A stretch of DNA of 45,876 nucleotides from a virus. Shown one piece after another: positions 21,402 through 43,050 of this stretch. Each line of letters opens with the position of its first letter. Positions within the stretch are counted from its first letter, which is position 1. The position numbers and the translations under genes were made by a program. Location: positions 1 through 45,876 of the IMG/VR virus record IMGVR_UViG_3300039016_000025; one strand, 5' to 3'. The notes under the pieces were generated by a model, which searched no databases, was not told where the DNA came from, and saw only the letters and a list, made by a program, of their open reading frames with translations.

Positions 21402-21430
21402 TTGACGTAGATAAATTATTTATCTAATAT
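21402..21430 (+). promoter_or_regulatory. Early promoter cassette copy 1 (TTGACG-17-TAATAT, spacer palindrome TAGATAAATTATTTATCTA)
   Basis: Hexamers and 17-nt spacer read directly. The same spacer occurs at five other sites. Confidence 0.7.
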
Positions 21431-21464
21431 AGGAAGCGTCAACCACTTCTTTGGAGTTCCCGCC

Positions 21465-21728
21465 ATGTCCCTCAAGCTTCCCGCTTCTTCCAGCCCTCTC
21501 CGCGAACTCTTTGACATTGCCGACTTGGCGGCCCTGGCCGATATTCAAGCCCGCACCAAGTTACCGACCTTACATCAAGCGAAAATGACTGCACGCAACG
21601 TTTTTGCAACCGACAATGCCGTCAAGCAAGTCAACATGCTGGTAATTCGAGCAAACGGCGATTTGCACTTGACCGCGTTTGGACCACGCGGAGGCGTTAC
21701 GCGACTTTGGAACTTCGGGAAACTCTAA
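21465..21728 (+). CDS. Hypothetical 87-aa protein, antisense-oriented inside the late gene block
   Basis: ORF has its own early-type promoter and a downstream hairpin terminator. Confidence 0.6.
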   Translation: MSLKLPASSSPLRELFDIADLAALADIQARTKLPTLHQAKMTARNVFATDNAVKQVNMLVIRANGDLHLTAFGPRGGVTRLWNFGKL

Positions 21729-21735
21729 GCACCCC

Positions 21736-21758
21736 AAAGGCCCCGCAAGGGGCCTTTT
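21736..21758. terminator. Bidirectional intrinsic terminator (9-bp stem aaaggcccc/ggggccttt, GCAA loop)
   Basis: Perfect hairpin between the convergent stops at 21728 and 21760. T-run on the plus side. Confidence 0.7.
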
Positions 21759-21759
21759 G

Positions 21760-23208: not shown

Positions 23209-23917
23209 CGGTCGCCCTGAGAATCGCGGCCAGTTGGGCGTCGGTCAAGTCGTCCGCCGTTAAATTCGCCATGGGAATGGGGCCGCCGCCGGGGCCGCTG
23301 AATTCCTTTTTATCGACCAGCATGCCCAGGTATCGGGCCAAGTTGGCGACCGCGGCGTCCTTGTCCCGCATGTGAATCTTGATGCCGTTGCGGGTCCGTT
23401 CGGCGCCAGCATAAAGCACCTTTGCCGGCCCGCGTAGCTTCCGGGTATCCGCGACGTGGACGTCTTCAATCCCCAGGCCGCCGCATTCGGGGCAATCGGA
23501 GTTTGGCGCCGCGTTCGGGTTGAACCCAAAGCCGCCCATGCCGTCGGGAGCGGGCTTCCCGGAATCCACAGCCCGGTCGACGGCGACGCTGTATTCCGCT
23601 TCCGTCCATTGGTATTGATGGCCGAAGCCATGACAATGGCGGCAACAGGTCCGGCGAACTTGAACGATTGAGTTAGGGTCGGCCGTTGCAATCTTGGCCC
23701 ATTGGCCGACGACCCATTCTGGCGTAATGCTGGCAGCGACGGCGCATTCTTTCATTCGTTCGGCTATCGCTTCTTGAATTTTTATAATTTTCAATAGCAA
23801 ATGGCCCTGCTGTCCCGCCCCGTTTTCTGAGTATCCAGCGCGTATGGCGGCCTGCGTCGCGTTTTCATCGACGCAATACTCGTTCACGAATCGGCGTTGT
23901 TTAGGTGTAAGGCTCAT
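23189..23917 (-). CDS. terS: Terminase small subunit (P27/Terminase_2-like)
   Basis: N-terminus MSLTPKQRRFVNEYCVDENATQAAIRAGYS is the classic family signature. Confidence 0.8.
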   Translation of the reverse strand: MSLTPKQRRFVNEYCVDENATQAAIRAGYSENGAGQQGHLLLKIIKIQEAIAERMKECAVAASITPEWVVGQWAKIATADPNSIVQVRRTCCRHCHGFGHQYQWTEAEYSVAVDRAVDSGKPAPDGMGGFGFNPNAAPNSDCPECGGLGIEDVHVADTRKLRGPAKVLYAGAERTRNGIKIHMRDKDAAVANLARYLGMLVDKKEFSGPGGGPIPMANLTADDLTDAQLAAILRATDAPDEA

Positions 23918-23926
23918 AGTGTCTTA

Positions 23927-23955
23927 ATTCTAGCCCTTGGCGGCCACAATTGCAA
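23927..23955 (-). promoter_or_regulatory. Candidate promoter for the terminase operon (TTGCAA-17-TAGAAT) ending 9 nt before the ATG
   Basis: Minus strand reads ttgcaa ttgtggccgccaagggc tagaat taagacact ATG. No Shine-Dalgarno. Confidence 0.35.
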
Positions 23956-24239
23956 CCACAACGGGGCGTCGCTCTTGGTTCGGTGCCCTTTACCCTGTTA
24001 CCCCATTGGCTAAAATTACGGGGTGGGTACTCTAACCCTTTGATTCTATTACTCTATTTTATATAATACCCCTATACCCCGTAATAATAGAACGCTGTAC
24101 ACCTTAGACCCTCTTACATTACAGTAAGGTTATTATAATAATCATATCTTACGTTAAGATGGTCTACAGTGCCGTAGGATTGCAAGCGTGCGGGGAATGC
24201 GACCCGGGGTTCTTACTTTCGCCGGGGGTTATGTCTTAC
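23956..24239. promoter_or_regulatory. AT-rich, repeat-dense non-coding region (TACCCC/GGGGTA and TCTTAC/GTAAGA motifs). Candidate pac/cos or regulator-binding region
   Basis: Largest non-coding gap in the genome. TCTTAC at 24112, 24147, 24211 and 24234. GTAAGA at 24252. attacggggt and accccgtaat are in inverted orientation. Confidence 0.5.
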
Positions 24240-24268
24240 TTGCGGCGGCGGGTAAGATGCGCTAAAAT
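24240..24268 (+). promoter_or_regulatory. Candidate promoter TTGCGG-17-TAAAAT for gene 24297
   Basis: Hexamers and spacing read directly. A TCTTAC/GTAAGA inverted repeat brackets the -35. Confidence 0.4.
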
Positions 24269-24296
24269 CATAACGTCAATTTTAGGAGCGTAAACC

Positions 24297-24806
24297 ATGC
24301 AAAATTACACCAGCCGGGCCGACGCGAAGGTAAGAGGCCAAAGCCAATATTTTACGGGGATTCCCTGCAAGAACGGCCATTTAACCTATAGGTACACTTC
24401 TAGCGGTTCTTGTAGCGGTTGCATCCGGGCGCACAATCGGCCGTCGAGTGACCAAGCGACCGTCGAACGCAAGGAAGCAAAGGCGCTTTTGGTGCAAGTT
24501 CGCTTGCGTTGCTATGAGGTTGACCGGGACGCCCTGGCGGCGGCCGTGTGGTCCTTCGCCGTCATGCGTAACCCGGTTATCACGCTGGGGGACGTCGACC
24601 CGCGTTTGCTACCCCAAGACAAGACCGCGGGCACGGGACTTTATGCGTTCTATTGCCATTCGGAAGACGTGCCCCAAGTCCGCCAACTGGCCGACGGCAT
24701 GCTCAACGGCCACAGTATCGACGCGAACGCTGGCAGGGCCAAAGCCATTGCAGCGGCCCAACGTTACGTCGAAGCGGATACGACGCCCCCTATGTCCTTC
24801 AAGTAG
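24297..24806 (+). CDS. Hypothetical protein with N-terminal Cys/His zinc-ribbon-like motif (possible regulator)
   Basis: 169 aa, AGGAG RBS. Motif YFTGIPCKNGHLTYRYTSSGSCSGC. Confidence 0.55.
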   Translation: MQNYTSRADAKVRGQSQYFTGIPCKNGHLTYRYTSSGSCSGCIRAHNRPSSDQATVERKEAKALLVQVRLRCYEVDRDALAAAVWSFAVMRNPVITLGDVDPRLLPQDKTAGTGLYAFYCHSEDVPQVRQLADGMLNGHSIDANAGRAKAIAAAQRYVEADTTPPMSFK

Positions 24807-24811
24807 CCGCG

Positions 24812-24831
24812 GGAGCCCTTGGCGGGGCTCC
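24812..24831. terminator. Hairpin between convergent genes (ggagccc ttggcg gggctcc)
   Basis: 7-bp perfect stem. No strong T-run. Confidence 0.4.
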
Positions 24832-24849
24832 GTGTGGCATTCGGGCTGG

Positions 24850-25137
24850 TCAGCCTATCCAATAGGTAATGCGCTCTTTGCCGGCCGATTCGTAGCGGGT
24901 GACGTTGATCGGTACACGGGCGCCGCGTTCCTCAAGTTTCGGGATGATGTAGTCGGCCACAATGCGGGCAGCTTCGGCCCGGCTCAAGCGCACATAGCCG
25001 CCAGCGCAACCAATGAACGCTTTGTCGTCTTCCCCTTCAATTGGGGCGTCGTTGCGGACGTGCAGGCAAAAGGAAGTGCCGGCCTTGGCGTTCTTTACGA
25101 ACTTAACGGCATCGGCGGTCTTGAATAGTTGGCTCAT
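24850..25137 (-). CDS. Hypothetical 95-aa early protein
   Basis: ORF with its own early promoter cassette and the CA-rich leader ending in ccGGAG. Confidence 0.6.
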   Translation of the reverse strand: MSQLFKTADAVKFVKNAKAGTSFCLHVRNDAPIEGEDDKAFIGCAGGYVRLSRAEAARIVADYIIPKLEERGARVPINVTRYESAGKERITYWIG

Positions 25138-25172
25138 GGTTTGCGCTCCGGTTGTTTGTGTTGACGCCCTAG

Positions 25173-25201
25173 ATATTAGATAAATAATTTACCTATGTCA
25201 A
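25173..25201 (-). promoter_or_regulatory. Early promoter cassette copy 2 (TTGACA-17-TAATAT)
   Basis: Minus strand reads ttgaca taggtaaattatttatc taatat. Confidence 0.7.
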
Positions 25202-25205
25202 CAAG

Positions 25206-25228
25206 AAAAAGCCCGCACTCGGCGGGCC
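25206..25228 (-). terminator. Intrinsic terminator after the pentapeptide-repeat gene
   Basis: Minus strand reads gcccgc cgagt gcgggc followed by ttttt. Confidence 0.7.
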
Positions 25229-25248
25229 TATAAATTGCGCTTGGTTAT

Positions 25249-26106
25249 TTAGGATTCCGCCGGGGCTTCCTCTTCGACCACGGTAGCCGGCCAGACGTTG
25301 TAATGGGCTTCAACCAGCACCAGCGCGGCCCGGTATTCAACGGCATGCACGTTGTCGCCGTGTTCCCCTTGCAGCTTGTCCCGGAACTCTTCCACGGTGC
25401 CAAAGAAGCAACCGGCACGAAGGTAAACGCCCTTTTCCGTGAGGAATGCCGTCAAAATGTCTTGCCGAGAACCGATCGGGCCGACCGCGAAATAGGGACG
25501 GTCGCCCGTCAGTTTACCCGCGTCGCGAAGGTCCGCGCCGCAAAGGTTCGCGCCGCAAAGGTCCGCGCCGCAAAGGTTCGCGCCGTAAAGGTCCGCGCCG
25601 CAAAGGTCCGCGCCGCAAAGGTCCGCGCTGCGAAGGTTCGCGCTGCGAAGGTTCGCGCTGCGAAGGTTCGCGCCGTAAAGGTTCGCGCTGCGAAGGTCCG
25701 CGCCGTAAAGGTTCGCGCTGCGAAGGTCCGCGCCGTAAAGGTTCGCGCCGTAAAGGTTCGCGCCGCAAAGGTTCGCGCCGTAAAGGTTCGCGCTGCGAAG
25801 GTCCGCGCCGTAAAGGTTCGCGCCGCAAAGGTCCGCGCCGTAAAGGTTCGCGCCGTAAAGGTTCGCGCTGCGAAGGTCCGCGCCGTAAAGGTTCGCGTCG
25901 CGAAGGTCCGCGCTGCGAAGGTCCGCGCCGTAAAGGTCCGCGCTGCGAAGGTCCGCGCCGTAAAGGTTCGCGCTGCGAAGGTCCGCGCCGTAAAGGTTCG
26001 CTTTTGCGTTTATCGCGGCGGCCAACGTAATTGCGTCGCTGTTGTTTTCGCATTCGTGGCTAAAAAGAATTTCCAGCGAAAAGCGGGATTTGATTTCAAT
26101 TTTCAT
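25249..26106 (-). CDS. Pentapeptide-repeat protein (32 consecutive A[ND]L[YRC][GSD] units plus a non-repeat C-terminal domain of about 90 aa)
   Basis: 285-aa ORF, GGAGAGG RBS, own promoter and terminator. Repeats read directly from the translation. Confidence 0.85.
   Translation of the reverse strand: MKIEIKSRFSLEILFSHECENNSDAITLAAAINAKANLYGADLRSANLYGADLRSADLYGADLRSADLRDANLYGADLRSANLYGANLYGADLCGANLYGADLRSANLYGANLCGANLYGANLYGADLRSANLYGADLRSANLYGANLRSANLRSANLRSADLCGADLCGADLYGANLCGADLCGANLCGADLRDAGKLTGDRPYFAVGPIGSRQDILTAFLTEKGVYLRAGCFFGTVEEFRDKLQGEHGDNVHAVEYRAALVLVEAHYNVWPATVVEEEAPAES
25522..26001. repeat. About 480 bp of contiguous 15-bp-periodic tandem repeat (the coding repeat of the pentapeptide protein)
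   Basis: Units such as gcgccgtaaaggttc and gcgctgcgaaggtcc are iterated without spacers. Several alternative frames are open across it. Confidence 0.9.
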
Positions 26107-26148
26107 GGTGTGTACCTCTCCAGGTGAATTAAGGATGCTACGGGCCTA

Positions 26149-26177
26149 ACTATAGATAAATAATTTACCGTCGGCAA
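26149..26177 (-). promoter_or_regulatory. Early promoter cassette copy 3 (TTGCCG-17-TATAGT)
   Basis: Minus strand reads ttgccg acggtaaattatttatc tatagt. Confidence 0.6.
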
Positions 26178-26180
26178 CGG

Positions 26181-26306
26181 TTATTTCTCGACTTCAAACT
26201 TAATGCCCCAGCGGAAAACCGCGGCATATAGGGCGCCGGCCGCAAACAAAAGCGGCTTTGTCCACCAGCGGGATTTAACGCTTACGGTGATTGATAGCTC
26301 CGTCAT
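26181..26306 (-). CDS. Possible 41-aa hydrophobic peptide, ATGA-coupled to the ParB-like gene
   Basis: Hand translation gives MTELSITVSVKSRWWTKPLLFAAGALYAAVFRWGIKFEVEK. Below the track size cut-off. Confidence 0.35.
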   Translation of the reverse strand: MTELSITVSVKSRWWTKPLLFAAGALYAAVFRWGIKFEVEK

Positions 26307-27142
26307 TTCTTCATGCTCTCCAACAGGTCGACAAGCGCCTTTTGGAACTTGGTGGACAATTGCTTGTAGCCCGGGTCGTCCATGAGCGTGGTCAACATTT
26401 GGTGCATGGGTTCCGCCTGTTTGCGTAGCACCTTCTTAAATTCGGCTTGCGGCAAGTGCTTGGCGGTAACGCGGCCGGTCCCCGACTTGACCATGGCAGC
26501 CAGTAACACGTCGCCCGCCTTGTCCCCGTGCTTCTTGATACTGTCAATTGCTAATGTGGCCGATATGACCGACTCCATTACCATGCGGCGAACCGGGAGC
26601 GGCGCCGATGCCAGGGACAACAGGGCGTCGACGTATTGTGCCCCGGAGTATCCCAAGCGGCGGGCAATCTCTTTGGACTCCCAGCCGAAGGCGGCCAGGC
26701 GCTTGCACACGACGGCTTGTTCGTAGGTGGTCAGGGGTTCCCCTTCGTTGCCCGTGACAAGGTCAACGGTAAGGTCTTCCATGCTGGTGCCGCGGGGCTT
26801 GATTACCACGGGCACGGCGGCCACTTCCACACCTTCCGAAAGCGCCAGCAATACCGCTTCGTGCCGGCGGTGCCCCCCGGTGACGTAGATAACTTCCGTG
26901 CCCTCTTCCAGCGCCACGAAGCCGGTCAACGGCTTGTCCCTGTAATAGCCGTTTGCCTTGATGCTGTCAGCAATCCAGCGCACGCGGCCGGCATACGCTT
27001 CATTTTTGACGCGGGCGTTAAAGCCCTCAAGGATGCGGAGCCGGGTCGGTTCCACTTGCCACAGGTCCGCACTTACGGCGCCGACGGCTTTCATGGCGGC
27101 TTTCATGTTGCCGGGGGTCAGTTCGCGGGTAAAGTCTTCCAT
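26303..27142 (-). CDS. ParB/KorB-like protein (ParB N-terminal domain plus HTH)
   Basis: 279 aa. Has the GGHRRH arginine-finger motif and an HTH-like WESKEIARRLGYSGAQYV. Confidence 0.7.
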   Translation of the reverse strand: MEDFTRELTPGNMKAAMKAVGAVSADLWQVEPTRLRILEGFNARVKNEAYAGRVRWIADSIKANGYYRDKPLTGFVALEEGTEVIYVTGGHRRHEAVLLALSEGVEVAAVPVVIKPRGTSMEDLTVDLVTGNEGEPLTTYEQAVVCKRLAAFGWESKEIARRLGYSGAQYVDALLSLASAPLPVRRMVMESVISATLAIDSIKKHGDKAGDVLLAAMVKSGTGRVTAKHLPQAEFKKVLRKQAEPMHQMLTTLMDDPGYKQLSTKFQKALVDLLESMKK

Positions 27143-27165
27143 TGGTTCACCTCTCCAAGTGATAG

Positions 27166-27188
27166 AGTAAAAGCCCCTTGCGGGGCGG
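27166..27188 (-). terminator. Intrinsic terminator/attenuator between the 69-aa gene and the ParB-like gene
   Basis: Minus strand reads gcccc gcaa ggggc tttt. Confidence 0.6.
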
Positions 27189-27192
27189 TTGG

Positions 27193-27402
27193 TTATCTGT
27201 ACTGCTTTACCATAAATTCGTCTTGGGCATAACCGAATAAGTTGACATACTTGCCGGTCGCATAGTTGAAACCGTCGTTAAACTTCGGATGATTTGGGTC
27301 GCCGTCGTCGAACTGCCCTTTCTTGTGCTGTGCCCGCAGTTCGTTGTCACATTCGCGCATTGCTTGTTTTGCTAGCTTTTTCGGCAGGTTGTACGTCTTC
27401 AT
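27193..27402 (-). CDS. Hypothetical 69-aa early protein
   Basis: ORF with its own early promoter cassette and CA-rich leader. Confidence 0.6.
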   Translation of the reverse strand: MKTYNLPKKLAKQAMRECDNELRAQHKKGQFDDGDPNHPKFNDGFNYATGKYVNLFGYAQDEFMVKQYR

Positions 27403-27435
27403 GTTCGTCGTTCCGGTTGTTGAGTTGATGAACGG

Positions 27436-27464
27436 AGTATAGATAAATTATTTATCTATGTCAA
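27436..27464 (-). promoter_or_regulatory. Early promoter cassette copy 4 (TTGACA-17-TATACT, perfect 19-bp palindrome in the spacer)
   Basis: Plus strand shows tatagataaattatttatctatgtcaa. Confidence 0.7.
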
Positions 27465-27500
27465 CACAAATTCAAAAGATTTTTGCACGGGCTCCGGCTT

Positions 27501-29885: not shown

Positions 29886-29889
29886 GGAA

Positions 29890-30201
29890 TCAGCCCGCCA
29901 AAGTGTTGAGGGCGCGGGCTTTCAGTTCGGGGTCGGCCTTTTGGGCGCACTTATCGCCGGCCGCCAGCCCTTGGGCAATTACGCCCAATTCTTCGGCAAC
30001 GATGGCGGCCCGCATGATGGCACGTCGGAAGGCGACCATGGTGCCAAAGTATTTTGATGGCAAGCCTTCCGCGCAACCGGCTTCCTTGGCGACGGCGGCC
30101 CGGGTCAGCTTGGACCAGCCGCCGGGTCGACCGGCGACCTTGATTGCAGCGTTCAAAATTTCCAGCTTACGGTCGTCGGGCAAAAGGCGCTTTTTAGTCA
30201 T
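29890..30201 (-). CDS. TetR_N-type HTH protein with no ligand-binding domain (103 aa)
   Basis: EILNAAIKVAGRPGGWSKLTRAAVAKEAGCAEGLPSKYF fits the TetR N-terminal HTH pattern. Confidence 0.6.
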   Translation of the reverse strand: MTKKRLLPDDRKLEILNAAIKVAGRPGGWSKLTRAAVAKEAGCAEGLPSKYFGTMVAFRRAIMRAAIVAEELGVIAQGLAAGDKCAQKADPELKARALNTLAG

Positions 30202-30266
30202 GGCTGTCTACTCAAGAAAATTAGAGGGTATTGTGGGGCGTAATGACGGGAGCATCAACGATAAAG

Positions 30267-30752
30267 TTACAGGGTGCCGATTCCGGTGCAGAAGGCAGCA
30301 TCGCCGCCGCCCGACGTAACCAGTTGAGCCCAAGCCAATTGCGCTTGCTCATGGTCGTCGCCGGTATAGCGCCAGCCAACTTTTTTACATTCGCGGGACA
30401 CGAAGAGCGCAACGCATTGGCCGACGTGCCGCTGTTCAATCAGCATTGGGCGCCAGCCTATCAGGTCCGCGGACTTCATGACTTCGTTAACCTGCTTTGA
30501 CTCATTCGCCAGTCCATAGCGCACGGGGACGCCCCGGGAATCAATCAGGGCGCCGACGTTGTTGCGGAATAGACGTACCCCTTTGCGGGCGGCTTCCAGG
30601 CGCACGGCGGCTTGTACCGCGGCTTCACTGGTGCCCTTCACTTCCGGCGGTAGGTCGTGGCCGCCGTGCATGCCAAAGAGTCCGGCAAGCTCTTGGAGTG
30701 CGGCCATAGTGACCCCGTGTCGCACGGCCCATTGGTAGACGGCCGGGCTCAC
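30267..30752 (-). CDS. VRR-NUC domain nuclease
   Basis: 161 aa, GTG start in a GTGA overlap. Has SADLIGW ... FVSRECKK (D...E.K). Confidence 0.65.
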   Translation of the reverse strand: MSPAVYQWAVRHGVTMAALQELAGLFGMHGGHDLPPEVKGTSEAAVQAAVRLEAARKGVRLFRNNVGALIDSRGVPVRYGLANESKQVNEVMKSADLIGWRPMLIEQRHVGQCVALFVSRECKKVGWRYTGDDHEQAQLAWAQLVTSGGGDAAFCTGIGTL

Positions 30753-31192: not shown

Positions 31193-31195
31193 CGG

Positions 31196-32950: not shown

Positions 32951-32952
32951 GG

Positions 32953-34092: not shown

Positions 34093-34106
34093 TTTTATCT
34101 ACCCTG

Positions 34107-34135
34107 TTGACGTGTTCGTCATTATCGGCTACAAT
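34107..34135 (+). promoter_or_regulatory. Rightward early promoter TTGACG-17-TACAAT
   Basis: Hexamers and spacing read directly in the 91-bp divergent intergenic region. Confidence 0.6.
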
Positions 34136-34150
34136 GGCACCTGTAGTCAA
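34121..34150 (-). promoter_or_regulatory. Candidate leftward promoter TTGACT-18-GATAAT overlapping the rightward one
   Basis: Minus strand reads ttgact acaggtgccattgtagcc gataat. Confidence 0.35.
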
Positions 34151-34183
34151 TGCCCTTCATCAACTTTCGGAGAACCTTACATC

Positions 34184-35179
34184 ATGAGTATGCAAATCAG
34201 CGTCGACCCTGCAGCCCTGTCCCAAGAGCAACGCGAAGCGGTCGCCGGTTTTATTCTGGCCTATCCCGGCAAGGCTTGTTCCGGAACGTGCGGCCACGCC
34301 GTCGCGGAGATTCACGCCCACGCGCACGCCGCCCCGGTTGCCGCTGGCGCCACTACTGCCCCGGCGCTCGACCCGGAGATTGCGGCCCTTGTCAAAGACG
34401 ACGGCGAGTTCCAAGCGTCCGTCGCATTTGGCGGTCACGGTTCCCCGGCGCTTGATGCCGACGCGGCAAAATTGAATGCCATTTTCGGACAGGGTGCCGC
34501 CGGCCCCACACTTGCCGACGTGGGTCTTGCTCCGGCCGCGGCCTTCGGAGTGCCCCCCGTCCCTTTGGTCGTTTCCACCCCCGCAATTGCGGCGGGCGCT
34601 ATCGTTGCCCCGCCGCCCCCGGCGAATACTGCCCCGATTACGACGACGCCTGGCGTTGCCTCTTCGGTCGCGGGTGTCGATTTGGACGCAAAGGGGTTCC
34701 CTTGGGATAACCGCATTCATGCTGGCACCAAGCGCAAGAACGCCGACGGTTCTTGGATGGCCAAGCGTGGCGTTGACCCGGCGCTGGTTGCCGCGGTTGA
34801 AGCCCAATTGCGCCAGGTCATGGGGGCCGCACCCGCCCCTTTGGCCCAAGGCGTTGCACCTGCTCCGACTGGCGCTGTCCCCCAGCCGGTAGCGCCCCCG
34901 CCCGCTCCCGTCCCTGTAGCTGGTGCGGCACCTTCCATGCCGGCGGCCCCGAGTGCTGCCCCCGCGGGTGAAGTGCCCCAGGATGCCCGGCAACAATTCG
35001 TCGGGCTGGTTGGGCGTGCCTCCGCGGCTATCCAGGGCCAGAAGGTCACGCAAGCCGAAGTCACCCAGATTTGCGCCGACTCCGGTATCCCGGCCCTCCC
35101 GTTGCTGGCAAACCGGCTGGATTTGGTTGCCACGGTTGCGTCGCGTATCGACGCCCTGATTGCGGCCCGTAGCCAATGA
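34184..35179 (+). CDS. Ala/Pro-rich early protein of unknown function
   Basis: Track ORF is 33998..35179. Preferred start is ATG 34184, after GGAGA and downstream of the promoter. Conserved island GFPWDNRIHAGTKRKNADGSWMAKRG. Confidence 0.6.
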   Translation: MSMQISVDPAALSQEQREAVAGFILAYPGKACSGTCGHAVAEIHAHAHAAPVAAGATTAPALDPEIAALVKDDGEFQASVAFGGHGSPALDADAAKLNAIFGQGAAGPTLADVGLAPAAAFGVPPVPLVVSTPAIAAGAIVAPPPPANTAPITTTPGVASSVAGVDLDAKGFPWDNRIHAGTKRKNADGSWMAKRGVDPALVAAVEAQLRQVMGAAPAPLAQGVAPAPTGAVPQPVAPPPAPVPVAGAAPSMPAAPSAAPAGEVPQDARQQFVGLVGRASAAIQGQKVTQAEVTQICADSGIPALPLLANRLDLVATVASRIDALIAARSQ

Positions 35180-36312
35180 GCGGCGCCCATTCAATCCTTC
35201 CGCCCTCCGGGGCGGGGGCTTGGAAGTTGTGCGCCCTTTGGGTCGCAATGAACCAGGCTTACCCGCAAGCGGACACGCCGGAAACGCTGGAAGGCAACGC
35301 GGCCCATTGGGTCTTTGCGGAAATGCTGGCCGGGCGCCAAGTGTCCGAAGGCATGCAAGCGCCCAATGGTGTTTTCATTACCGACGAAATGATCGAAGGC
35401 GCCAAACTTGTGGTTGACACGGTTCGCGCCAGGATTCCCGCCGGTACAGTCTTGCATGTTGAAGAGCCCGTCGCAATCCCGCGGATTCACGCGCAATGCT
35501 GGGGCACGCCTGATATTTGGGCGTTCGTACAGGATGCGCTAACCCTTGAGGTTATCGACTACAAGTTCGGGCACCGCTTTGTCGATGAATACGAAAACGA
35601 CCAGGGCGTGGCCTGCACCGCGGGCATTCTTGACCATTTGGCGGACGTGCTGGGGAAAGGCCCCGGGCTTCTTGACCAGGCCATAAAAGTTAATTTTACG
35701 GTCGTGCAACCGCGTTGCTTCTACAAGGGGTCGCCGGTTCGTACTTGGTCGGTCATGGCTTCGGACCTTCGCGCCCACATTAACCAGCTTGCCAACGCGG
35801 CCGGGGTTGCCCTGGCGCCGAATCCGCCGGCCGTTACCAATTCGGAATGCGTGGATTGCCCCGGCCGTCATGCGTGCCCGGCCCTGCAGCAAGCCGCGTA
35901 CCACGACGCGGAGTTCGCCGTAAGGTCTTCCCCCGTGGAATTGCCGCCGGTCGCCGCAAGCCTTGAATTGCGAATGATGGAACGGGCCTTAGAGCGGCTA
36001 CAAGCCCGCGTCGAGGGCATGCGGGAAGCCGTGGCGACGTACATTCGCCAAGGTCATTCCGTGCCGTACCATCGGGCGGAACAAGGTTACGGTCGCCAGC
36101 AATGGACGATGCCCGTCGACCAAGTGCTGGCAATGGGTCAACTCATGGGCGTCGACCTCTCCAAGCCCGGAGTTAAGACGCCGAAGCAGGCGCAAAAAGC
36201 CGGTGTTGACGAAGCCGTCATTAAGGCTTACAGTGTTATCCCCATGGGGTCGGTAAAATTGGTCCCTGACAATCCAGCCGACGCCCGCCGGGTATTCGGT
36301 ACAACCTACTAG
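35176..36312 (+). CDS. PD-(D/E)XK Cas4/RecB-like nuclease (DUF2800-like)
   Basis: 378 aa, ATGA-coupled. Has VIDYKFG plus a Cys cluster (an N-terminal C and CVDCPGRHAC). Confidence 0.65.
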   Translation: MSGAHSILPPSGAGAWKLCALWVAMNQAYPQADTPETLEGNAAHWVFAEMLAGRQVSEGMQAPNGVFITDEMIEGAKLVVDTVRARIPAGTVLHVEEPVAIPRIHAQCWGTPDIWAFVQDALTLEVIDYKFGHRFVDEYENDQGVACTAGILDHLADVLGKGPGLLDQAIKVNFTVVQPRCFYKGSPVRTWSVMASDLRAHINQLANAAGVALAPNPPAVTNSECVDCPGRHACPALQQAAYHDAEFAVRSSPVELPPVAASLELRMMERALERLQARVEGMREAVATYIRQGHSVPYHRAEQGYGRQQWTMPVDQVLAMGQLMGVDLSKPGVKTPKQAQKAGVDEAVIKAYSVIPMGSVKLVPDNPADARRVFGTTY

Positions 36313-36326
36313 GAAAGGTGTAGACG

Positions 36327-36551
36327 ATGGACAATCAACATAAACACATTAAGGGATACCGCGATTTGACGGCGGAAGAAATTGCCCTGATGAATGAAAT
36401 TAAAGCGCAAGGTGAACAACTTGGCGCATTGGTCGAAAAGCTCCGCGCAACTAGCCTGCTCGACCAACGTTGGGTAAGCATCGGCGCGACCGATCTGCAA
36501 ATGGGCATCATGGCGCTTGTTCGTGGTGTTGCCCAACCAACGACGTTTTAA
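36327..36551 (+). CDS. Conserved small phage protein, unknown function
   Basis: 74 aa. HKHIKGYRDLTAEEIALMNEIKAQGE ... RWVSIGATDLQMG. Confidence 0.55.
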   Translation: MDNQHKHIKGYRDLTAEEIALMNEIKAQGEQLGALVEKLRATSLLDQRWVSIGATDLQMGIMALVRGVAQPTTF

Positions 36552-36584
36552 GCCACTCGCACCACAATCTAAGGAGTTTTCCAC

Positions 36585-37646
36585 ATGGCACAAAAAGTTA
36601 ACATCACTTCGCCCGTCGGCCGTATCGTCATGGGTTCCCTGTATGACCCGTCGACCACGGACGCCGAAGGCAAGCCGCTGGTCGTCAAGACCGGCCCGAA
36701 CGCCGGCCAGCCCCGCGTCAACTACTTTTTCGCCCTGGCAATCCCCAAGGGTGTGGAACCGCATTGGGCGCACACGCCTTGGGGGCAACAGATTTGGAAC
36801 GTCGGCAATCAGGCTTTCCCGAACGCCGCGCAATCCCCGGCCTTCGCGTGGAAGATTGAAGACGGCGACAGCCAGATTCCCAACAAGAAGGGCCGGAAGC
36901 CGTGCGATAACGAAGGCTGGCGCGGGCATTGGATTCTGAAATTCTCCGGCGGCTTCGCCCCGAAGGTGTACCAGCAAGAGGGCGCCGGCTATGTTCAAGT
37001 CATGCAAAAAGACTTCTGCAAACCTGGCTACTTCGTGGAAGTTGCCTTTAGCGTCGAGGGTAACGGTAGCCAATCGCAACCGGGCGTCTACCTCAATCAT
37101 TCCATGGTTTGCTTCCGCGCCTACGGCCAGGAAATTACCTTTGGTCCCGACGTGGCTTCCGCTGGCTTCGGCGCAGCTCCGTTGCCCGCTGGCGCCAGCA
37201 TGACGCCGCCGGCCGGTGCCATTCCGATGCCCCAGGCCCCCGCCGCCGCTCCGGCCCTTCCCGGCGCCCCGGCTGGCTATGCACCGCCTCCGGTGCCCGG
37301 CATGATGCCCCAGGCCCCCGCCGCCGCTCCCGTGGCCTATGCGCCGCCCCCGGGCGTTCCGCAAGTACCTGGCGTGGCTCCGGCCCCTTTGGCGCCCGCT
37401 GGTTTTGCGCCGACGCCCTCCGTCCCTGTCCCGGGTGCGCCTGCGCCCATCCCGGTTACTCCTAACCCGGGCTTTGTGCAGGTTCCGCCGCCGGCCGCCG
37501 CTCCGGCACCGATGGCGCCCCCGCCCGCTCCGGTCGCCCCCGTGCGTCAAATGACGGCAGCTGCGCAAGGCGTGACCTATGACGCCTACGTCGCCGCCGG
37601 CTGGTCCGACGCTCAGTTGGTCCAAAACGGTTTGATGTTGGCTTAA
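36585..37646 (+). CDS. ssDNA-binding protein, DUF2815-like, with a long Pro/Ala linker and a conserved C-terminal tail
   Basis: 353 aa, AAGGAG RBS. The OB-like N-terminal 190 aa are followed by about 130 aa of P/A-rich linker. The tail is GWSDAQLVQNGLMLA. Confidence 0.65.
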   Translation: MAQKVNITSPVGRIVMGSLYDPSTTDAEGKPLVVKTGPNAGQPRVNYFFALAIPKGVEPHWAHTPWGQQIWNVGNQAFPNAAQSPAFAWKIEDGDSQIPNKKGRKPCDNEGWRGHWILKFSGGFAPKVYQQEGAGYVQVMQKDFCKPGYFVEVAFSVEGNGSQSQPGVYLNHSMVCFRAYGQEITFGPDVASAGFGAAPLPAGASMTPPAGAIPMPQAPAAAPALPGAPAGYAPPPVPGMMPQAPAAAPVAYAPPPGVPQVPGVAPAPLAPAGFAPTPSVPVPGAPAPIPVTPNPGFVQVPPPAAAPAPMAPPPAPVAPVRQMTAAAQGVTYDAYVAAGWSDAQLVQNGLMLA

Positions 37647-37653
37647 CGCAACC

Positions 37654-37685
37654 GCCTGGCCCTTCGGGGCCGGGCATTTTTATTT
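37654..37685 (+). terminator. Intrinsic terminator (9-bp stem, UUCG loop, T-run)
   Basis: gcctggccc ttcg gggccgggc atttttattt. Confidence 0.8.
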
Positions 37686-37696
37686 GTTTCGGGGTG

Positions 37697-37725
37697 TTGA
37701 CATAGGTAAATTATTTATCTAAAAT
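37697..37725 (+). promoter_or_regulatory. Early promoter cassette copy 5 (TTGACA-17-TAAAAT)
   Basis: ttgaca taggtaaattatttatc taaaat. Confidence 0.75.
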
Positions 37726-37759
37726 CACTCCATCAACTCAACAAACCGGAGCAAATCAA

Positions 37760-38014
37760 ATGTCTAAATTCTCTTGCCAGTGCGGACGGTGTGGCGGTAG
37801 TGGCAAATATGACCGCGGCTCCTGTTTTGACTGCAATGGGCTTGGCTTTAAGAATGTTGCCCGTAAGCCGACGTTACTCGCTCACGTTCTGACTGTCACT
37901 TACAGCAATGGGAGCGTCAACACGGTTACGATTTACGCCAGCCTTCGCGCTGTTGCTGTGGAAATCGTTTCGCGGCAATTGAAAATCAAAGGTTGGATTG
38001 GTGAAGTTAAATGA
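37760..38014 (+). CDS. Small protein with DnaJ-type CxxCxGxG zinc-finger repeats
   Basis: 84 aa. CGRCGGSGK and CFDCNGLGF. Confidence 0.6.
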   Translation: MSKFSCQCGRCGGSGKYDRGSCFDCNGLGFKNVARKPTLLAHVLTVTYSNGSVNTVTIYASLRAVAVEIVSRQLKIKGWIGEVK

Positions 38015-38214
38015 AAAAGCGCGACCCCTTTGCTGCGGCCGAACAAAAGGGTCGCCGAGCGGCCCGCGACGGCCTTCCTATTACGGCATGCCCTTACGCC
38101 GATATCAGGAAGCCGTCGGGTAAATTGTCATGGTCAAGAGCGTGGCGTAACACTTGGATTATCGCGTATGAATCCGAACGCGTTAACATGGGTCACAAAC
38201 CCCCTTTTAGATGA
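38011..38214 (+). CDS. Rmf/CrpP-fold-like small protein
   Basis: 67 aa, ATGA-coupled. Pattern is GRRAARDGLPITACPY ... W. Confidence 0.45.
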   Translation: MKKRDPFAAAEQKGRRAARDGLPITACPYADIRKPSGKLSWSRAWRNTWIIAYESERVNMGHKPPFR

Positions 38215-38223
38215 GCGTGAATT

Positions 38224-38376
38224 ATGAGCAAATGGGATAGCCGTTTTATGGACCTTGCCCGGCTGGTTGCCAGTTGGAGTAAAGACCAGTCGACCCAAGT
38301 TGGCGCCGTCATTGTCGACCAAGACAAGCGCATAGTTTCAACCGGATTTAACGGCTTTCCCCGTTGCGTCAAATGA
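38224..38376 (+). pseudogene. Truncated dCMP/CMP deaminase (first 50 codons only; zinc-binding HAE/PCxxC motifs absent)
   Basis: MSKWDSRFMDLARLVASWSKDQSTQVGAVIVDQDKRIVSTGFNGFP matches the deaminase N-terminus. It is followed by a premature TGA at the junction with the duplicated segment. Confidence 0.6.
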
Positions 38377-38498
38377 CGGCCGCGGCGCAAGGCATCCCCT
38401 ATGAATCCTACATTCAACAGGGGTGGACCGACGCCATGCTGGTACAAAACGGGCTGATGCTGGCCTAATCGCAACCGCCTGGCCCTTCGGGGCCGGGC
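38366..38498 (+). repeat. Diverged second copy of the SSB 3-prime end plus terminator hairpin (copy 1 is 37544-37675)
   Basis: Aligned by eye. The hairpin is identical. The coding part encodes MTAAAQGIPYESYIQQGWTDAMLVQNGLMLA, against copy 1 MTAAAQGVTYDAYVAAGWSDAQLVQNGLMLA. Confidence 0.85.
38373..38468 (+). CDS. Possible 31-aa free-standing copy of the SSB tail peptide (ATGA-coupled to the deaminase remnant)
   Basis: The ATG overlaps the TGA of the remnant. The last 9 codons differ from copy 1 only synonymously. Confidence 0.3.
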   Translation: MTAAAQGIPYESYIQQGWTDAMLVQNGLMLA

Positions 38499-38509
38499 GC
38501 CCCTTTTGA
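38477..38509 (+). terminator. Second copy of the UUCG-loop hairpin, with a weaker T-run
   Basis: gcctggccc ttcg gggccgggc gcccctttt. Confidence 0.5.
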
Positions 38510-38519
38510 AGACGATTTA

Positions 38520-39440
38520 ATGCTGATATTCAAAAATAACAATGTGGCAAGCGTGATGATTGGCGATTGCTTAACGTCGCTTGCCACACTGCCTGAACGC
38601 TCGGTTAATTGCTGCGTTACTTCGCCGCCCTATTATGGCTTGCGCGACTACGGTGTCGACGGACAAATCGGCCTTGAAGACTCCCCCGACGCCTACGTCG
38701 CTAGATTGGTCGAAGTGTTCCGCGAAGTCCGTCGGGTACTGACTGACGACGGCACGCTATGGCTAAATATCGGTGACAGTTACGCCAGCAACCCGGCCAG
38801 CGGTGGCAATCGGTCTAGCAAAATGACAGGTGGCGAACATAAGCGCACGCCAACCGAGCACAAATATCGGCGACCCGACGGCCTCAAACCCAAAGACCTT
38901 ATAGGGATTCCCTGGCTATTGGCGTTTGCCTTACGTGCGGACGGGTGGTATTTGCGCCAGGATATTATTTGGCACAAGCCAAACCCGATGCCGGAATCAG
39001 TGCGCGACCGATGCACGAAGGCGCATGAATATTTATTTTTACTTTCAAAATCCGAACGGTATTTTTTCGATAGCGATGCGATGCAGGAACCGTCCAAAGG
39101 TCGCACCGATATGGGCCGAATGAATGGAATTGGTCGGATAAATGAAGGTGGATGGTGTACGGAAGAGCCAAAAGAAAAATTAACCCGCAACCGCCGAAGC
39201 GTATGGACAGTAACGCCAAAACCTTACAAGGGAGCACATTTCGCCGTCTACCCGCCCGAACTTATTGAACCTTGCGTATTGGCCGGATGCCCGGAGGGGG
39301 GCACTGTTTTAGACCCTTTCGGCGGCTCCGGCACGACGGGCGGCGTGGCCTTGAAGCATGGTAGAAACGCCGTTCTTTGCGAACTTAGCCCGGATTACGT
39401 GGCACTCATGCCCGCACGAATTGAGTCGATAGCATGCTGA
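38520..39440 (+). CDS. Orphan DNA methyltransferase, beta-class (motif IV SPPY, suggesting N4-cytosine or N6-adenine)
   Basis: 306 aa. Has TSPPYYGLRDY early and LDPFGGSGTTG late. GC is markedly lower than in the neighbours. Confidence 0.8.
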   Translation: MLIFKNNNVASVMIGDCLTSLATLPERSVNCCVTSPPYYGLRDYGVDGQIGLEDSPDAYVARLVEVFREVRRVLTDDGTLWLNIGDSYASNPASGGNRSSKMTGGEHKRTPTEHKYRRPDGLKPKDLIGIPWLLAFALRADGWYLRQDIIWHKPNPMPESVRDRCTKAHEYLFLLSKSERYFFDSDAMQEPSKGRTDMGRMNGIGRINEGGWCTEEPKEKLTRNRRSVWTVTPKPYKGAHFAVYPPELIEPCVLAGCPEGGTVLDPFGGSGTTGGVALKHGRNAVLCELSPDYVALMPARIESIAC

Positions 39441-41458
39441 TTGCCCCACCCCCGCCGCCGGCCACAGCGGCCCGCCCCGTGGCCTTCTACGATACGGAAT
39501 GCTTCCCCAACTATTGGTTGCTCAAGTTCCGCCCCCGCGGCGGTCAAGCGTACAGCTTCCGGCTACGGGCGGGGCAAGCGTTCGACCTTGTTACCGCGTC
39601 CCGCATTCGGCTGTTGTTCGACGCCTATTGCTCCGTCAGTTTCAACGGCAACTATTACGACGTCCCCATGATTACCGCGGCGCTGTCCGGCTACACCGCG
39701 GAGCAATTGAAATGGCTTAACGACCGCATCATCGTTGAAAAGGTGAAGCCTTGGGAACTTGGCTTGCCGGAGTGGCGCCCCGCGGACCATATCGACGTCA
39801 TGGAAGTCGCCCCGGGCGCCGGTTCCCAAAAGCAGTACGCCGGCCGGATTCACTGTAAGACAATGCGCGACCTCCCCTATGACCCGGGCCACTACGTCAC
39901 GGAAGCGGAGATTGTGGAAGTCGACACGTATTGCGAAAACGACCTTGCCGTGCTGGAAGCCCTCTTTGACGCCCTGCAGCCGATGATTGAACAGCGGGAA
40001 GCCTTGGGCAATCGCTACGGCTTGGACCTCCGGAGCAAGTCCGATGCCCAAGTCGCGGAGGCTGTACTTAAGCGCCGTTGTGAACAGGCCCTTGGGCAAC
40101 GCATTTACAAGCCGGAAATTGATTGGAATTTAGCGTTTCGGTACAAGGTGCCGCCGTTCATTTCCTACACGCTCCCGCAACTGCAAAGGGCCTTGGAACT
40201 GGTCCGCGAATCCGTCTTTAGGCTAGGGCCGTCCGGCGCCGTGGAAATGCCGCCACAGCTTGAAGGGCTGGAAATTACCGTCAACCGTTCGACCTATAAA
40301 ATGGGCATTGGGGGCTTGCACAGCCAGGAGAAAAAACTAGTCGCCGTGAGTGGTCCGAACAACCAAATACGGATGCCGGACGTCGCCAGCTATTACCCAA
40401 ATCTAATTTTGAATTCCGGCGAGTGGCCGCCCGCCCTTGGGCCGACCTTCCTCAAAGAGTACGAATCCATTAAGGATGAACGCCTAGCCGCCAAAGCCTT
40501 GCAAGGGAAATTAAAGAAGGCCGGCGACACAAAGAGCCATGAATATGCCGAAGCCAGGGTCGGCAACGAAGGTGGCAAGATTATGATTAACGGGACTTTT
40601 GGAAAGACCGGGAGCCCGTACAGCGTTCTTTTTGCGCCGACCATGTTGATTCAAACAACAGTAACCGGGCAATTGTCCCTTTTGATGCTGATTGAATGGC
40701 ACGAACTTTACGGAATCCCGGTTATTTCGGCCAATACCGACGGCATAGTCATTGACTGCCCGCGGGATAAGCTGCAGGTCAGTGAATACCTTATTGCTGA
40801 ATGGCAACGCCGCACGGGCTTGGAAATGGAAACGGACGATTACGTCGCCCTCTATGCCCGGGACGTGAACAACTATTTTGCAATCAAGACCCCGGACGAC
40901 GTGAAGCGCAAAGGGGAATATGCCAAAGCCGGTTTGGCTGAAAAGAAAAACCCCGACGTCGAGATTTGCGCGGACGCCGTGGCGGAATTCTTGGCAAAGG
41001 GTGTGCCCGTGGAATACACCATTGCCGCGTGCCGTGATATTCGCAAGTTCGTTACCATCCAGAAGGTCAACGGGGGCGGCGTCAAAATGTGGGGCGAAGG
41101 GCCGCGCAAGGGTGCCAGGGTCATGGATATGGTCGGCACGTTGCAGGCCAACGGATGGACCAAGGAGGGCCGCAAGTGGCGCCGCGGGGACATGCTGGCA
41201 CCAGCGGCCACAGCATACGCCGCGTGCTTCCAGCCCCAAACGCCGGAATACTTGGGAAAGGTGGTGCGCTGGTACTACAGCACGCAAGCGCCTGGCCCCA
41301 TCGTCTACGCCAGTAACGGCAACACGGTAAGCCTTTCCTATGGTGCCCGGCCGTGCATGACGCTACCGGACGAATTCCCGGACGATATCGACTACGCTTG
41401 GTACGTCGGCAAGGCCGAAGCGATGTTGCGGGACGTTGGATATTATCAGTTGACATAG
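39434..41458 (+). CDS. Family B DNA polymerase with 3-5 exonuclease domain
   Basis: 674 aa. Exo I is FYDTECF, motif A DVASYYPN, motif B KIMINGTFGK, motif C SANTDGIV. Confidence 0.8.
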   Translation: MLIAPPPPPATAARPVAFYDTECFPNYWLLKFRPRGGQAYSFRLRAGQAFDLVTASRIRLLFDAYCSVSFNGNYYDVPMITAALSGYTAEQLKWLNDRIIVEKVKPWELGLPEWRPADHIDVMEVAPGAGSQKQYAGRIHCKTMRDLPYDPGHYVTEAEIVEVDTYCENDLAVLEALFDALQPMIEQREALGNRYGLDLRSKSDAQVAEAVLKRRCEQALGQRIYKPEIDWNLAFRYKVPPFISYTLPQLQRALELVRESVFRLGPSGAVEMPPQLEGLEITVNRSTYKMGIGGLHSQEKKLVAVSGPNNQIRMPDVASYYPNLILNSGEWPPALGPTFLKEYESIKDERLAAKALQGKLKKAGDTKSHEYAEARVGNEGGKIMINGTFGKTGSPYSVLFAPTMLIQTTVTGQLSLLMLIEWHELYGIPVISANTDGIVIDCPRDKLQVSEYLIAEWQRRTGLEMETDDYVALYARDVNNYFAIKTPDDVKRKGEYAKAGLAEKKNPDVEICADAVAEFLAKGVPVEYTIAACRDIRKFVTIQKVNGGGVKMWGEGPRKGARVMDMVGTLQANGWTKEGRKWRRGDMLAPAATAYAACFQPQTPEYLGKVVRWYYSTQAPGPIVYASNGNTVSLSYGARPCMTLPDEFPDDIDYAWYVGKAEAMLRDVGYYQLT

Positions 41459-41478
41459 ATAAATTATTTAGCTACAGT
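41450..41478 (+). promoter_or_regulatory. Early promoter cassette copy 6 (TTGACA-17-TACAGT). The -35 lies in the last polymerase codons
   Basis: ttgaca tagataaattatttagc tacagt. Confidence 0.65.
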
Positions 41479-41509
41479 ACACCTATACCAACCAACCGGA
41501 GATTTAAAA

Positions 41510-42964: not shown

Positions 42965-43050
42965 TTGCCGGCGCCGTTGCCCTTTGGTTGCTGGTCGGCA
43001 TCGGCGTCGCCCAGCTTTTCCGAATCAACCCGCGGGACGACCAGCCATGA
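42961..43050 (+). CDS. Possible 29-aa single-TM peptide
   Basis: MIAGAVALWLLVGIGVAQLFRINPRDDQP, with ATGA overlaps at both ends. Confidence 0.35.
   Translation: MIAGAVALWLLVGIGVAQLFRINPRDDQP

Follow-up and report, generated by a model that had tools for sequence, protein, structure and literature searches.

A repeated promoter cassette with a palindromic spacer in an uncultured myovirus genome: a candidate dispersed operator and site of gene exchange

Introduction

What keeps the spacer of a promoter almost unchanged through six copies scattered over both strands of a phage genome? We addressed this question in the window, by which we mean the whole stretch of DNA analysed here, 45,876 nucleotides (nt) from an uncultured phage (IMG/VR record IMGVR_UViG_3300039016_000025, positions 1-45,876). 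A preliminary description, made from the sequence alone, had pointed out six copies (C1 to C6) of a sigma-70-type promoter whose spacer forms a palindrome with the start of the -10 hexamer. It had proposed that one dimeric regulator of phage or host origin controls all six as early units and that the cassettes could serve as recombination points for small genes.

We find the six-cassette feature to be real, the case for promoters to be strong, the idea of recombination points to be supported, and an operator in the spacer to be the best-supported explanation that the sequences suggest. Sequence comparison makes it somewhat probable that these are portable cassettes, in which a promoter for the host polymerase carries the operator of a phage repressor, with a protein of 52 amino acids (aa), HTH52, as the candidate, and which double as exchange points. 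Taken as a whole, the earlier interpretation was borne out in part.

Results

Six cassettes share one promoter anatomy

The cassettes follow the pattern TTGACR - 17 nt (TAGRTAAATWATTTAKC) - TAnnnT. When up to three mismatches were allowed, the 17-mer TAGRTAAATWATTTATC was found in the whole window at six loci on both strands, with one further weak match at 538. These amount to 13 matches against 0.10 expected, a number reached in none of 100 shuffles; each locus is matched on both strands because the 17-mer is palindromic. All six sites are present at the positions and on the strands first described, the spacer is 17 nt long in every copy (6/6), and the leader sequences and the scores of the 19-mer dyad (Table 1) agree with those given earlier. 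The palindrome is a 9-1-9 dyad, TAGnTAAAT-W-ATTTAnCTA, made up of the spacer and the first two bases of the -10 hexamer, with half-site centres 10 bp apart.

Each cassette consists of an optional upstream terminator hairpin, a sigma-70 promoter, a C/A-rich leader (C[A/G]TCAAC... from the predicted +1) and GGAG. The hexamers match the sigma-70 consensus at 9-11 of 12 positions in all six. From the -35 hexamer to the start codon there are 60-71 nt, the leader between the -10 hexamer and the start codon (ATG or GTG) is 31-42 nt long, and a ribosome-binding GGAG (GGAA in C4) lies 7-9 nt ahead of every start codon. A simple sigma-70 scan of 20-40 kb returned 25 promoter-like sites against 7.4 ± 2.4 expected; it recovered five cassettes there and C6 in a further stretch, and ranked C4 and C5 at the top (11/12). 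Hexamers, spacer length, GGAG, leader conservation from the predicted +1 and the presence of at least 82 copies (see below) together support the promoter reading well.

We also considered the palindrome as an intrinsic terminator. As RNA it would fold into a hairpin of -3.8 to -5.5 kcal/mol (z = -0.8 for C2) that lacks a U-tract and in which all pairs but one are A-U, and this role was ruled out by the weak hairpin and the missing U-run. Separate GC-rich, terminator-like hairpins stand immediately upstream of C2 and C5, and in relatives the hairpin gcccgccgcgtgcgggc with its T-run ends at the -35.

Table 1. Coordinates of the cassettes and of other features of the window
Feature	Position	Strand	-35 hexamer	17-nt spacer	-10 hexamer	Palindrome (pairs of 9)	Details
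Cassette 1 (C1)	21402-21464	+	TTGACG (21402-21407)	TAGATAAATTATTTATC	TAATAT (21425-21430)	21408-21426 (9/9)	leader with CGTCAAC and GGAG
Cassette 2 (C2) with upstream hairpin 25229-25209	25138-25229	-	TTGACA (25201-25196)	TAGGTAAATTATTTATC	TAATAT (25178-25173)	25195-25177 (8/9)	gene behind: 95 aa, 24850-25137
Cassette 3 (C3), degenerate copy	26107-26177	-	TTGCCG	ACGGTAAATTATTTATC	TATAGT	26171-26153 (6/9)	gene behind: pentapeptide-repeat, 25249-26106
Cassette 4 (C4)	27403-27464	-	TTGACA (27464-27459)	TAGATAAATAATTTATC	TATACT	27458-27440 (9/9)	behind: 69-aa gene (27193-27402), then ParB-like gene (26303-27142; matches phrog_1033)
Cassette 5 (C5) with upstream hairpin 37654-37675	37654-37759	+	TTGACA (37697-37702)	TAGGTAAATTATTTATC	TAAAAT	37703-37721 (8/9)	behind: 84-aa gene, RMF-like, truncated dCMP deaminase, methylase, DNA polymerase
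Cassette 6 (C6)	41450-41509	+	TTGACA	TAGATAAATTATTTAGC	TACAGT	41456-41474 (8/9)	behind: 190-aa clamp-like gene, 108-aa gene, DUF3310, HTH52, 122-aa gene
HTH52, 52-aa helix-turn-helix protein	42806-42964	+					in the C6 operon; best candidate palindrome binder
122-aa protein, predicted zinc ribbon	42984-43352	+					adjoins HTH52; less strict co-occurrence with the palindrome
87-aa accessory gene (phrog_15793) and bidirectional hairpin 21739-21757	21465-21757	+					behind C1
C5 module	37537-38498	+					bracketed by 140-nt direct repeat of single-stranded DNA-binding protein (SSB) gene 3' end plus hairpin (37537-37675, 38359-38498)
Overlapping divergent promoters	34107-34150		TTGACG (rightward); TTGACT (leftward)		TACAAT (rightward); GATAAT (leftward)		no AT palindrome; spacers 17 nt (rightward) and 18 nt (leftward)
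Small and large terminase	23917-21760	-					late genes
Portal	21358-19835	-					late genes
Protease, major head protein, tail sheath, tape measure, baseplate		-					late genes
Lysis genes	45655-43464	-					late genes

Conservation of the spacer is two-fold symmetric

To place the cassettes among relatives, whose loci are labelled with L-numbers, we used two sets. An exact-pattern scan of IMG/VR found the motif at 44 loci, whose identity to the window is 69-98%, and a set anchored on DNA polymerase comprised 74 loci at 36-99% protein identity. Counting copies as distinct by their 114-nt context, the window and all loci together hold 82 distinct cassette copies, in which TTGAC and TAnnnT are kept. 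Their -35 hexamer, spacer and -10 hexamer are almost invariant, and the flanks (-19 to -9 and +30 to +34) have an information content close to zero; because they are unconstrained, the copies are not recent duplicates. Leader conservation (CATCAACTCAAC...) sets in 6 nt past the -10 hexamer, at the expected start site.

Two spacer positions that the search pattern had left free, G3 and C17, are each kept in 80/82 copies, while the mirror pair 4/16 is the most variable (G40/A31/C6/T5 at position 4, T58/C14/G9/A1 at position 16). Since G3 and C17 are fixed while their mirror-placed neighbours vary, the constraint is two-fold symmetric, a pattern that contacts with polymerase would not be expected to produce. 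Symmetric variants exist at 4/16 (C4/G16 in L057, G4/C16 in L055; L051 changes also at 6/14). Compensatory change was considered for this pair and set aside: the combinations G4/T16 and A4/G16 occur often, L052 has a hybrid form, and we treated the two as positions that are not recognised.

As a control we took the non-palindromic promoter at 34107, which is conserved in the same relatives with varying free spacer bases (tgtt, gtag, attg, atgg, gatg). Among the orthologs of the promoter that overlaps the 3' end of the DNA polymerase gene, 28/30 distinct sequences have the AT dyad, in its usual or in a variant form. In L107 this promoter reads TTGACA-TGGCGAACGCTGTGCGC-TAAAGT with the same CATCAAC leader, its spacer being GC-rich and non-palindromic, and L068 combines a TTGACR -35 with another GC-rich, non-palindromic spacer. 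Promoter and leader thus persist without the palindrome, and promoter function alone cannot account for a palindrome that these relatives do without; judging from their sequences, it is probably dispensable for the promoter. A distant search with the consensus cassette returned short, chance-level matches only, and the motif was found in no described phage.

A 52-aa helix-turn-helix protein accompanies the palindrome

HTH52 is encoded in the operon behind C6. We scored its presence in the polymerase-anchored loci by tblastn and then by a profile search with filters off. It was found in 20/20 palindrome-bearing loci and in 0/24 palindrome-less ones, even at E <= 10 apart from two noise matches. 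In loci anchored on HTH52 itself, the palindrome or a lineage-specific variant lies upstream wherever the sequence reaches that far. The family is small and confined to one clade, with 108 database homologs that are all at least 71% identical. There is some tendency for the operators that diverge most to accompany the HTH52 proteins that diverge most (L063, L051, L057), with counter-examples such as L053.

Among 23 HTH52 orthologs, 19-20 gave weak Pfam matches to HTH_23 or HTH_3. A structure modelled from the database homologs is a four-helix helix-turn-helix (HTH) fold with a predicted local distance difference test score (pLDDT) of 84. Its fold neighbours are the KorA-operator complex (top), ArdK, sigma region 4 and the DeoR DNA-binding domain, all at E > 1 and not significant, as is expected for 52 residues; a profile search against PDB sequences gave no meaningful match. 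We regard HTH52 as the leading candidate for the protein that would bind the palindrome.

Among the HTH genes that the preliminary description had put forward as binders, the one at 42806-42964 (HTH52) is favoured by its co-occurrence and its fold, with the proviso that the co-occurrence is possibly a single clade-level event. The one at 29890-30201, which encodes a 103-aa protein with a weak TetR_N match, is disfavoured, being found in lineages with and without the palindrome and behind a different class of promoter. The neighbouring 122-aa protein may be a second regulator; partial homologs of it occur in the palindrome-less loci L070, L071 and L089.

Accessory genes are exchanged at the cassettes

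The genes behind the cassettes do vary among related genomes: those right behind C1, C4 and C5 recur in one other locus at most, against 10-22 loci for the core genes that flank them. The clearest breakpoint comes from L040/L021, which are 98% identical to the window. Homology ends at 21426, the last base of the C1 palindrome, and resumes at 21733; in between, these relatives have a -10 hexamer of another subtype, another leader, which resembles that of window C4, and another gene. Across genomes the portal-side upstream context is joined to at least 4 leader types and genes, and the terminator-type upstream context precedes at least 6 unrelated genes. The order of the pentapeptide and ParB-like genes (window 26303-27402) is permuted in L005, L013, L017 and L023, and L023 has three successive cassette-gene units against one in the window.

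C1 sits between the portal gene and that of the large terminase (TerL), oriented against the late operon. With the 87-aa gene and the hairpin behind it, it makes up a self-contained, moron-like promoter-gene-terminator unit. On its opposite strand we noted a promoter-like site that faces the portal gene (TTGACG at 21442-21437, 16 nt, AATAAT at 21420-21415), with its -10 at the centre of the palindrome. The portal operon might need a start of its own, since the bidirectional hairpin separates TerL from portal; we tentatively read the reverse CGTCAA as a leader element, since it is also present in leaders that have no gene ahead of them. At C6, the coding sequence for DNA polymerase runs through the -35 hexamer and stops with the first triplet of the palindrome (TAG, 41456-41458).

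The repeats that bracket the C5 module are 83-94% identical and enclose three small genes as well as C5. Compared with the SSB 3' end of L047, the second copy is the closer of the two, the truncated dCMP deaminase gene (38224-38376) is fused to it, and the whole module is absent from L047 (95-98% identical). By its sequence, this bracket looks like the footprint of an insertion by recombination. L047 also lacks the first two genes behind C6. We examined this deletion (41517-42355; L047 4893) as a possible cassette exchange and rejected it, the joint being a GATT microhomology. Not every indel near the cassettes is cassette-mediated, as this deletion and the repeat of the SSB 3' end make plain. 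The proposal that the cassettes are recombination points is hence carried by the variable genes, the breakpoint at the palindrome end and the permuted order, and is limited by these other indels.

A second promoter class and a different repeated cassette

A second class of promoter (class B, the palindromic cassettes being class A) reads TTGACG-N4-CGTCATTA-N5-(T/C)ACA(A/G)T and contains an inverted repeat of the -35 hexamer, TTGACG-N4-CGTCA(TTA). Copies lie at 34107-34135(+), 36206-36234(+) and 30258-30230(-), and the window holds 9 strand-matches against 0.8 expected. Relatives have 3-9 class B copies per locus, whether or not the AT palindrome is present. The copy at 30258 is directly upstream of the 103-aa HTH gene, with a 27-nt leader, and a class B copy stands directly ahead of the ortholog of this gene in six lineages. 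TTGACG-N4-CGTCA may be the operator of the 103-aa protein. Two regulator-operator pairs would make an economical model, in which the 103-aa protein acts at class B, on the core replication genes, and HTH52 acts at class A, on the accessory genes and the right arm.

In a sister lineage that lacks HTH52 there is another repeated cassette, TTGCAT-17-CATAAT (L060 57-120 and 12061-12130; L067 12017), with the direct repeat TTGCATAA, a non-palindromic spacer and a similar CATC..GGAG leader; repeated cassettes can evidently exist without a palindrome. DNA polymerase of L060/L067 is 75-78% identical to that of the window and the other replication proteins only 40-59%, which suggests that the polymerase gene has been exchanged.

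One genomic match lies in a phage-related island

We scanned 185,579 species genomes for the motif linked to its -35 hexamer and obtained one match, in an uncultured Azonexus genome bin. It falls in an island at 3104-7999 (L114) of contig CALJZP010000188.1 of this metagenome-assembled genome; along the contig, the housekeeping genes prs and pth are followed by a P4-type integrase gene, small open reading frames (ORFs), a baseplate-hub homolog, the palindrome and a primase-polymerase gene. The hub homolog is 69% identical to window 5425-6300. The other islands that we examined are L115 (6963-14754), L116, a contig from a sequencing run, and L117. All four measure some 8 kb and share the P4-type integrase, small ORFs, hub homolog and primase-polymerase, and across them hub identity is 67-70% (amino acid). 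Related chromosomal islands of ~8 kb adjoin argJ or gmk/rpoZ in other assemblies.

The palindrome is present only in the L114/L116 subclade, in one copy each, after the hub gene and with an intact dyad. The flanking -10 is poor in both (TAAATC), the -35 of L116 is degenerate (TTAATG), and HTH52 is encoded by none of the islands examined (L114-L117). We give little credence to, though we mention, the idea that the palindrome is a regulatory signal shared by a phage-satellite pair, where the satellite would be a parasite of this phage family and HTH52 would switch it or be titrated by it. If true, the cassettes would be a plug-in system that wires any captured gene, of phage or satellite, into one circuit. 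The Azonexus island also offers a host lead, and the window phage likely has its host in the Rhodocyclales; a search of the literature for phages of the putative host genera found none.

The surrounding genome

The window ends, 1-127 and 45750-45876, overlap and are 100% identical, which makes the window a complete genome, circular or permuted, with a length of 45,749 bp; its GC content is ~58%. It belongs to a myovirus with no cultured close relative. A near-identity DNA search with window 21-31 kb gave no match among cultured phage records, and the best identities of its proteins to cultured phages are <=42% for DNA polymerase and <=56% for TerL (amino acid).

Two replication arms diverge from overlapping promoters, 34107(+) and 34150(-). 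The leftward arm encodes a methylase, SNF2 helicase, DUF4406, endonuclease, the 103-aa HTH protein and primase-polymerase, and is followed by C4, C3 and C2 with their 69-aa, ParB-like, pentapeptide-repeat and 95-aa genes. The rightward arm has genes for a 331-aa protein, a DUF2800 nuclease, a 74-aa protein and a Gp2.5-like SSB, and then C5 and C6. This rightward operon begins with the gene at 34184-35179 (331 aa, no family match), and the mechanically listed ORFs in 34150-35159 (+) are wrong-frame and rich in Arg and Pro.

Family annotation of the window proteins brought up no integrase or recombinase, an Rfam scan of the whole window, leaders included, gave 0 matches at the gathering score, and a tRNA scan of the window found none. 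Between the small terminase gene (-) and the 169-aa gene (+), 380 bp of AT-rich intergenic DNA (23917-24297) contain several promoter-like sites, for example TTGATT-16-TATAAT at 24040, and may hold a late promoter or a packaging site. The tape-measure gene has a perfect 45-nt tandem duplication (2.2 copies, 7981-8077), and the pentapeptide-repeat gene a 32-copy tandem array of a 15-nt unit (25519-26001; 83% matches) whose length varies among relatives.

Discussion

The anatomy of the cassettes, the pattern of their conservation, the co-occurrence with HTH52 and the breakpoints can be read directly from the genomes that we compared. From these we infer transcription starts, protein binding, repression and timing, including the "early" timing of the six units. 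The palindrome would most likely serve as an operator, bound two-fold symmetrically by a regulator that the phage encodes. Sitting between the -35 and -10 hexamers, such a protein would exclude RNA polymerase and so lower all six units together, and HTH52, if it is that protein, would be made from C6 itself and would close a negative feedback loop. The repeated ~30-65 bp would offer portable homology for the gain, loss and reordering of accessory genes among relatives, and in this way a captured gene would be wired into the same control circuit.

Several observations weigh against this repressor-operator explanation. The co-occurrence of HTH52 and palindrome may reflect one clade-level gain, and it carries little statistical weight because the group that has both looks like one clade with few independent events; the neighbouring 122-aa gene co-occurs with the palindrome almost as well. 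HTH52 has only 52 aa and no evident dimerisation domain, and its structural matches are all at E > 1. Changes in its recognition helix do not track changes in the operator cleanly (L053 has TAAS for TRSA and a standard operator), and a distant homolog (48% identity, L152) lies in a contig without the palindrome. In the operator itself, there is no covariation between positions 4 and 16, G4 often being found with T16, and more distant relatives preserve the left arm (TAGGTAAAT) better than the right, a bias that would also fit a monomeric binder beside the -35 hexamer. Concerted evolution among copies could moreover inflate the apparent conservation. Of the proposal that one dimeric regulator serves all six units, then, the symmetric constraint, the apparent dispensability of the palindrome for the promoter and the HTH52 co-occurrence speak in favour, and the possibly single origin of that co-occurrence speaks against.

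Could the cassettes be strong constitutive sigma-70 promoters and nothing else, with an AT-rich spacer that aids polymerase by bending or melting, an identity that stems from recent spread and gene conversion, and an incidental dyad? Near-consensus hexamers at 17-nt spacing need no activator, the copies do recombine, the phage encodes annealing and nuclease proteins (Gp2.5-like SSB, DUF2800), and the repeated cassette of L060/L067 has a non-palindromic spacer. We nevertheless think this unlikely, though less so than the other alternatives, given a symmetric constraint (G3/C17 fixed, 4/16 free) that is unexpected from polymerase contacts, the unconstrained flanks of the 82 copies, which show them not to be recent duplicates, the GC-rich spacers in orthologous promoters and the very small chance of a 9/9 dyad. 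It is also unlikely, and we rank it next, that the operator is correct and is bound by another phage protein: the 122-aa zinc-ribbon, the ParB-like, the 103-aa TetR_N-like or the 169-aa protein (24297-24806). The ParB-like gene (phrog_1033) lies behind C4, and since KorA, the top, non-significant neighbour of HTH52, partners the ParB-family protein KorB (PMC2665229), a pairing of ParB-like protein and HTH52 is possible. The 122-aa gene accompanies the palindrome in most loci and has partial homologs in three palindrome-less ones. For the 103-aa protein the weak TetR_N match is countered by its occurrence with and without the palindrome and by its position directly behind TTGACG-N4-CGTCA in the window and six relatives.

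A host protein might instead bind the palindrome, either a nucleoid-associated silencer or a transcription factor through which phage expression would follow host physiology. The palindrome is a 19-bp AT island within a 58% GC genome; TAGATAAATT matches 9/10 bases of the H-NS high-affinity motif reported as TCGATAAATT, and the dyad is superficially similar to a Fur box, with a GATAA-TTATC distance 2 bp off the 7-1-7 arrangement of Fur. Relatives that lack HTH52 also lack the palindrome at the same promoters, which is a weak argument, and the -35-linked motif occurs once in the 185,579 species genomes, in a phage-related island, by a pattern that misses sites without TTGACR. On the choice that the preliminary description had left between phage and host, the genome scan and the joint absence with HTH52 favour a phage protein, and a host protein seems to us very unlikely. 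Least probable of all, in our judgement, is that the palindrome is a structural or recombination element, be it an attenuating stem-loop, a cruciform or the site of a nuclease or recombinase that moves cassettes. The stem-loop of the T4-type elements discussed below lies mostly between the -35 and -10 hexamers or overlaps the -10 (PMC2839356), one exchange breakpoint falls exactly at the palindrome end, and the cassette genes differ among relatives. Set against this are the weak RNA hairpin without a U-tract, the dedicated GC-rich terminators upstream of C2 and C5, a window annotation with no recombinase or integrase, and the other joints that other indels near the cassettes have used.

If the repressor-operator explanation is true, a module of ~65 bp joins the operator of a repressor to a consensus host promoter and a translation leader, and a newly acquired gene would fall at once under the timing circuit of the phage. 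The model of promoter-cassette shuffling, hitherto one of T4-type phages, would be extended to an unrelated phage group with an operator component added. It would also supply a concrete regulator-operator pair, the 52-aa protein and its 19-bp site, with the 103-aa protein and TTGACG-N4-CGTCA suggested as a second; both are compact enough for synthetic-biology parts.

In T4-type phages, the promoter early stem-loop elements (PeSLs) border small genes that vary and undergo recombination; each contains a stem-loop and a strong sigma-70-like promoter and has a Shine-Dalgarno sequence and start codon at its 3' end (Arbiol et al. 2010, PMC2839356; Comeau et al. 2014, PMC4122927). The cassettes described here are likewise small, repeated and intergenic, are composites of promoter, hairpin and Shine-Dalgarno/start codon with a dyad between the -35 and -10 hexamers, precede variable small genes and contain breakpoints. 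They belong, however, to an unrelated 45.7-kb myovirus of 58% GC and are an analog, not a homolog. Their dyad is AT-rich, nearly fixed and too weak to terminate, with separate GC-rich terminators upstream, whereas PeSL stems are GC-rich and variable; and the fixed sequence under symmetric constraint points to a protein operator, which has not been proposed for PeSLs.

The KorA operators of the IncP plasmids RK2/RP4 are short symmetric sites at several promoters, with seven OA sites on RP4 (PMC2665229, PMC4889941). Both systems disperse an operator over one replicon in perfect and imperfect copies, both have a small HTH gene (a repressor there, a candidate here) behind its own operator and a ParB-family gene in the same genome, and the KorA complex heads the structural neighbours of HTH52, albeit at a non-significant score. 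KorA is nonetheless part of a plasmid system, its 12-bp operator is unrelated in sequence, and it has 101 aa with a dimerisation domain against the 52 aa of HTH52, with no sequence homology detected. In systems of the Cro/CI and Arc/Mnt type, early transcription is shut off by a small phage repressor whose dyad operators overlap with the core promoter. Such systems have 1-6 clustered operators at one or two regions, unlike the single operators at six dispersed promoters here, and the window yielded neither a lysogeny module nor an integrase.

Stoperators of cluster A mycobacteriophages are asymmetric 13-bp sites that are bound by a monomer, block elongation and lie mostly outside promoters (PMC9283540, PMC6550527). 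What they have in common with the palindrome is that one repressor site, a putative one here, is repeated many times across a phage genome. Lambdoid morons, reportedly described by Juhala et al. in 2000, are said to be promoter-gene-terminator units, typically expressed from the prophage and without a common promoter-operator. C1 with its 87-aa gene and hairpin, placed between portal and TerL with a content that varies among relatives, resembles them, but shares its promoter-operator with five other units where morons share none. By analogy, then, the elements of this genome are perhaps best seen as PeSL-like mobile regulatory cassettes that would also carry a KorA-like dispersed operator.

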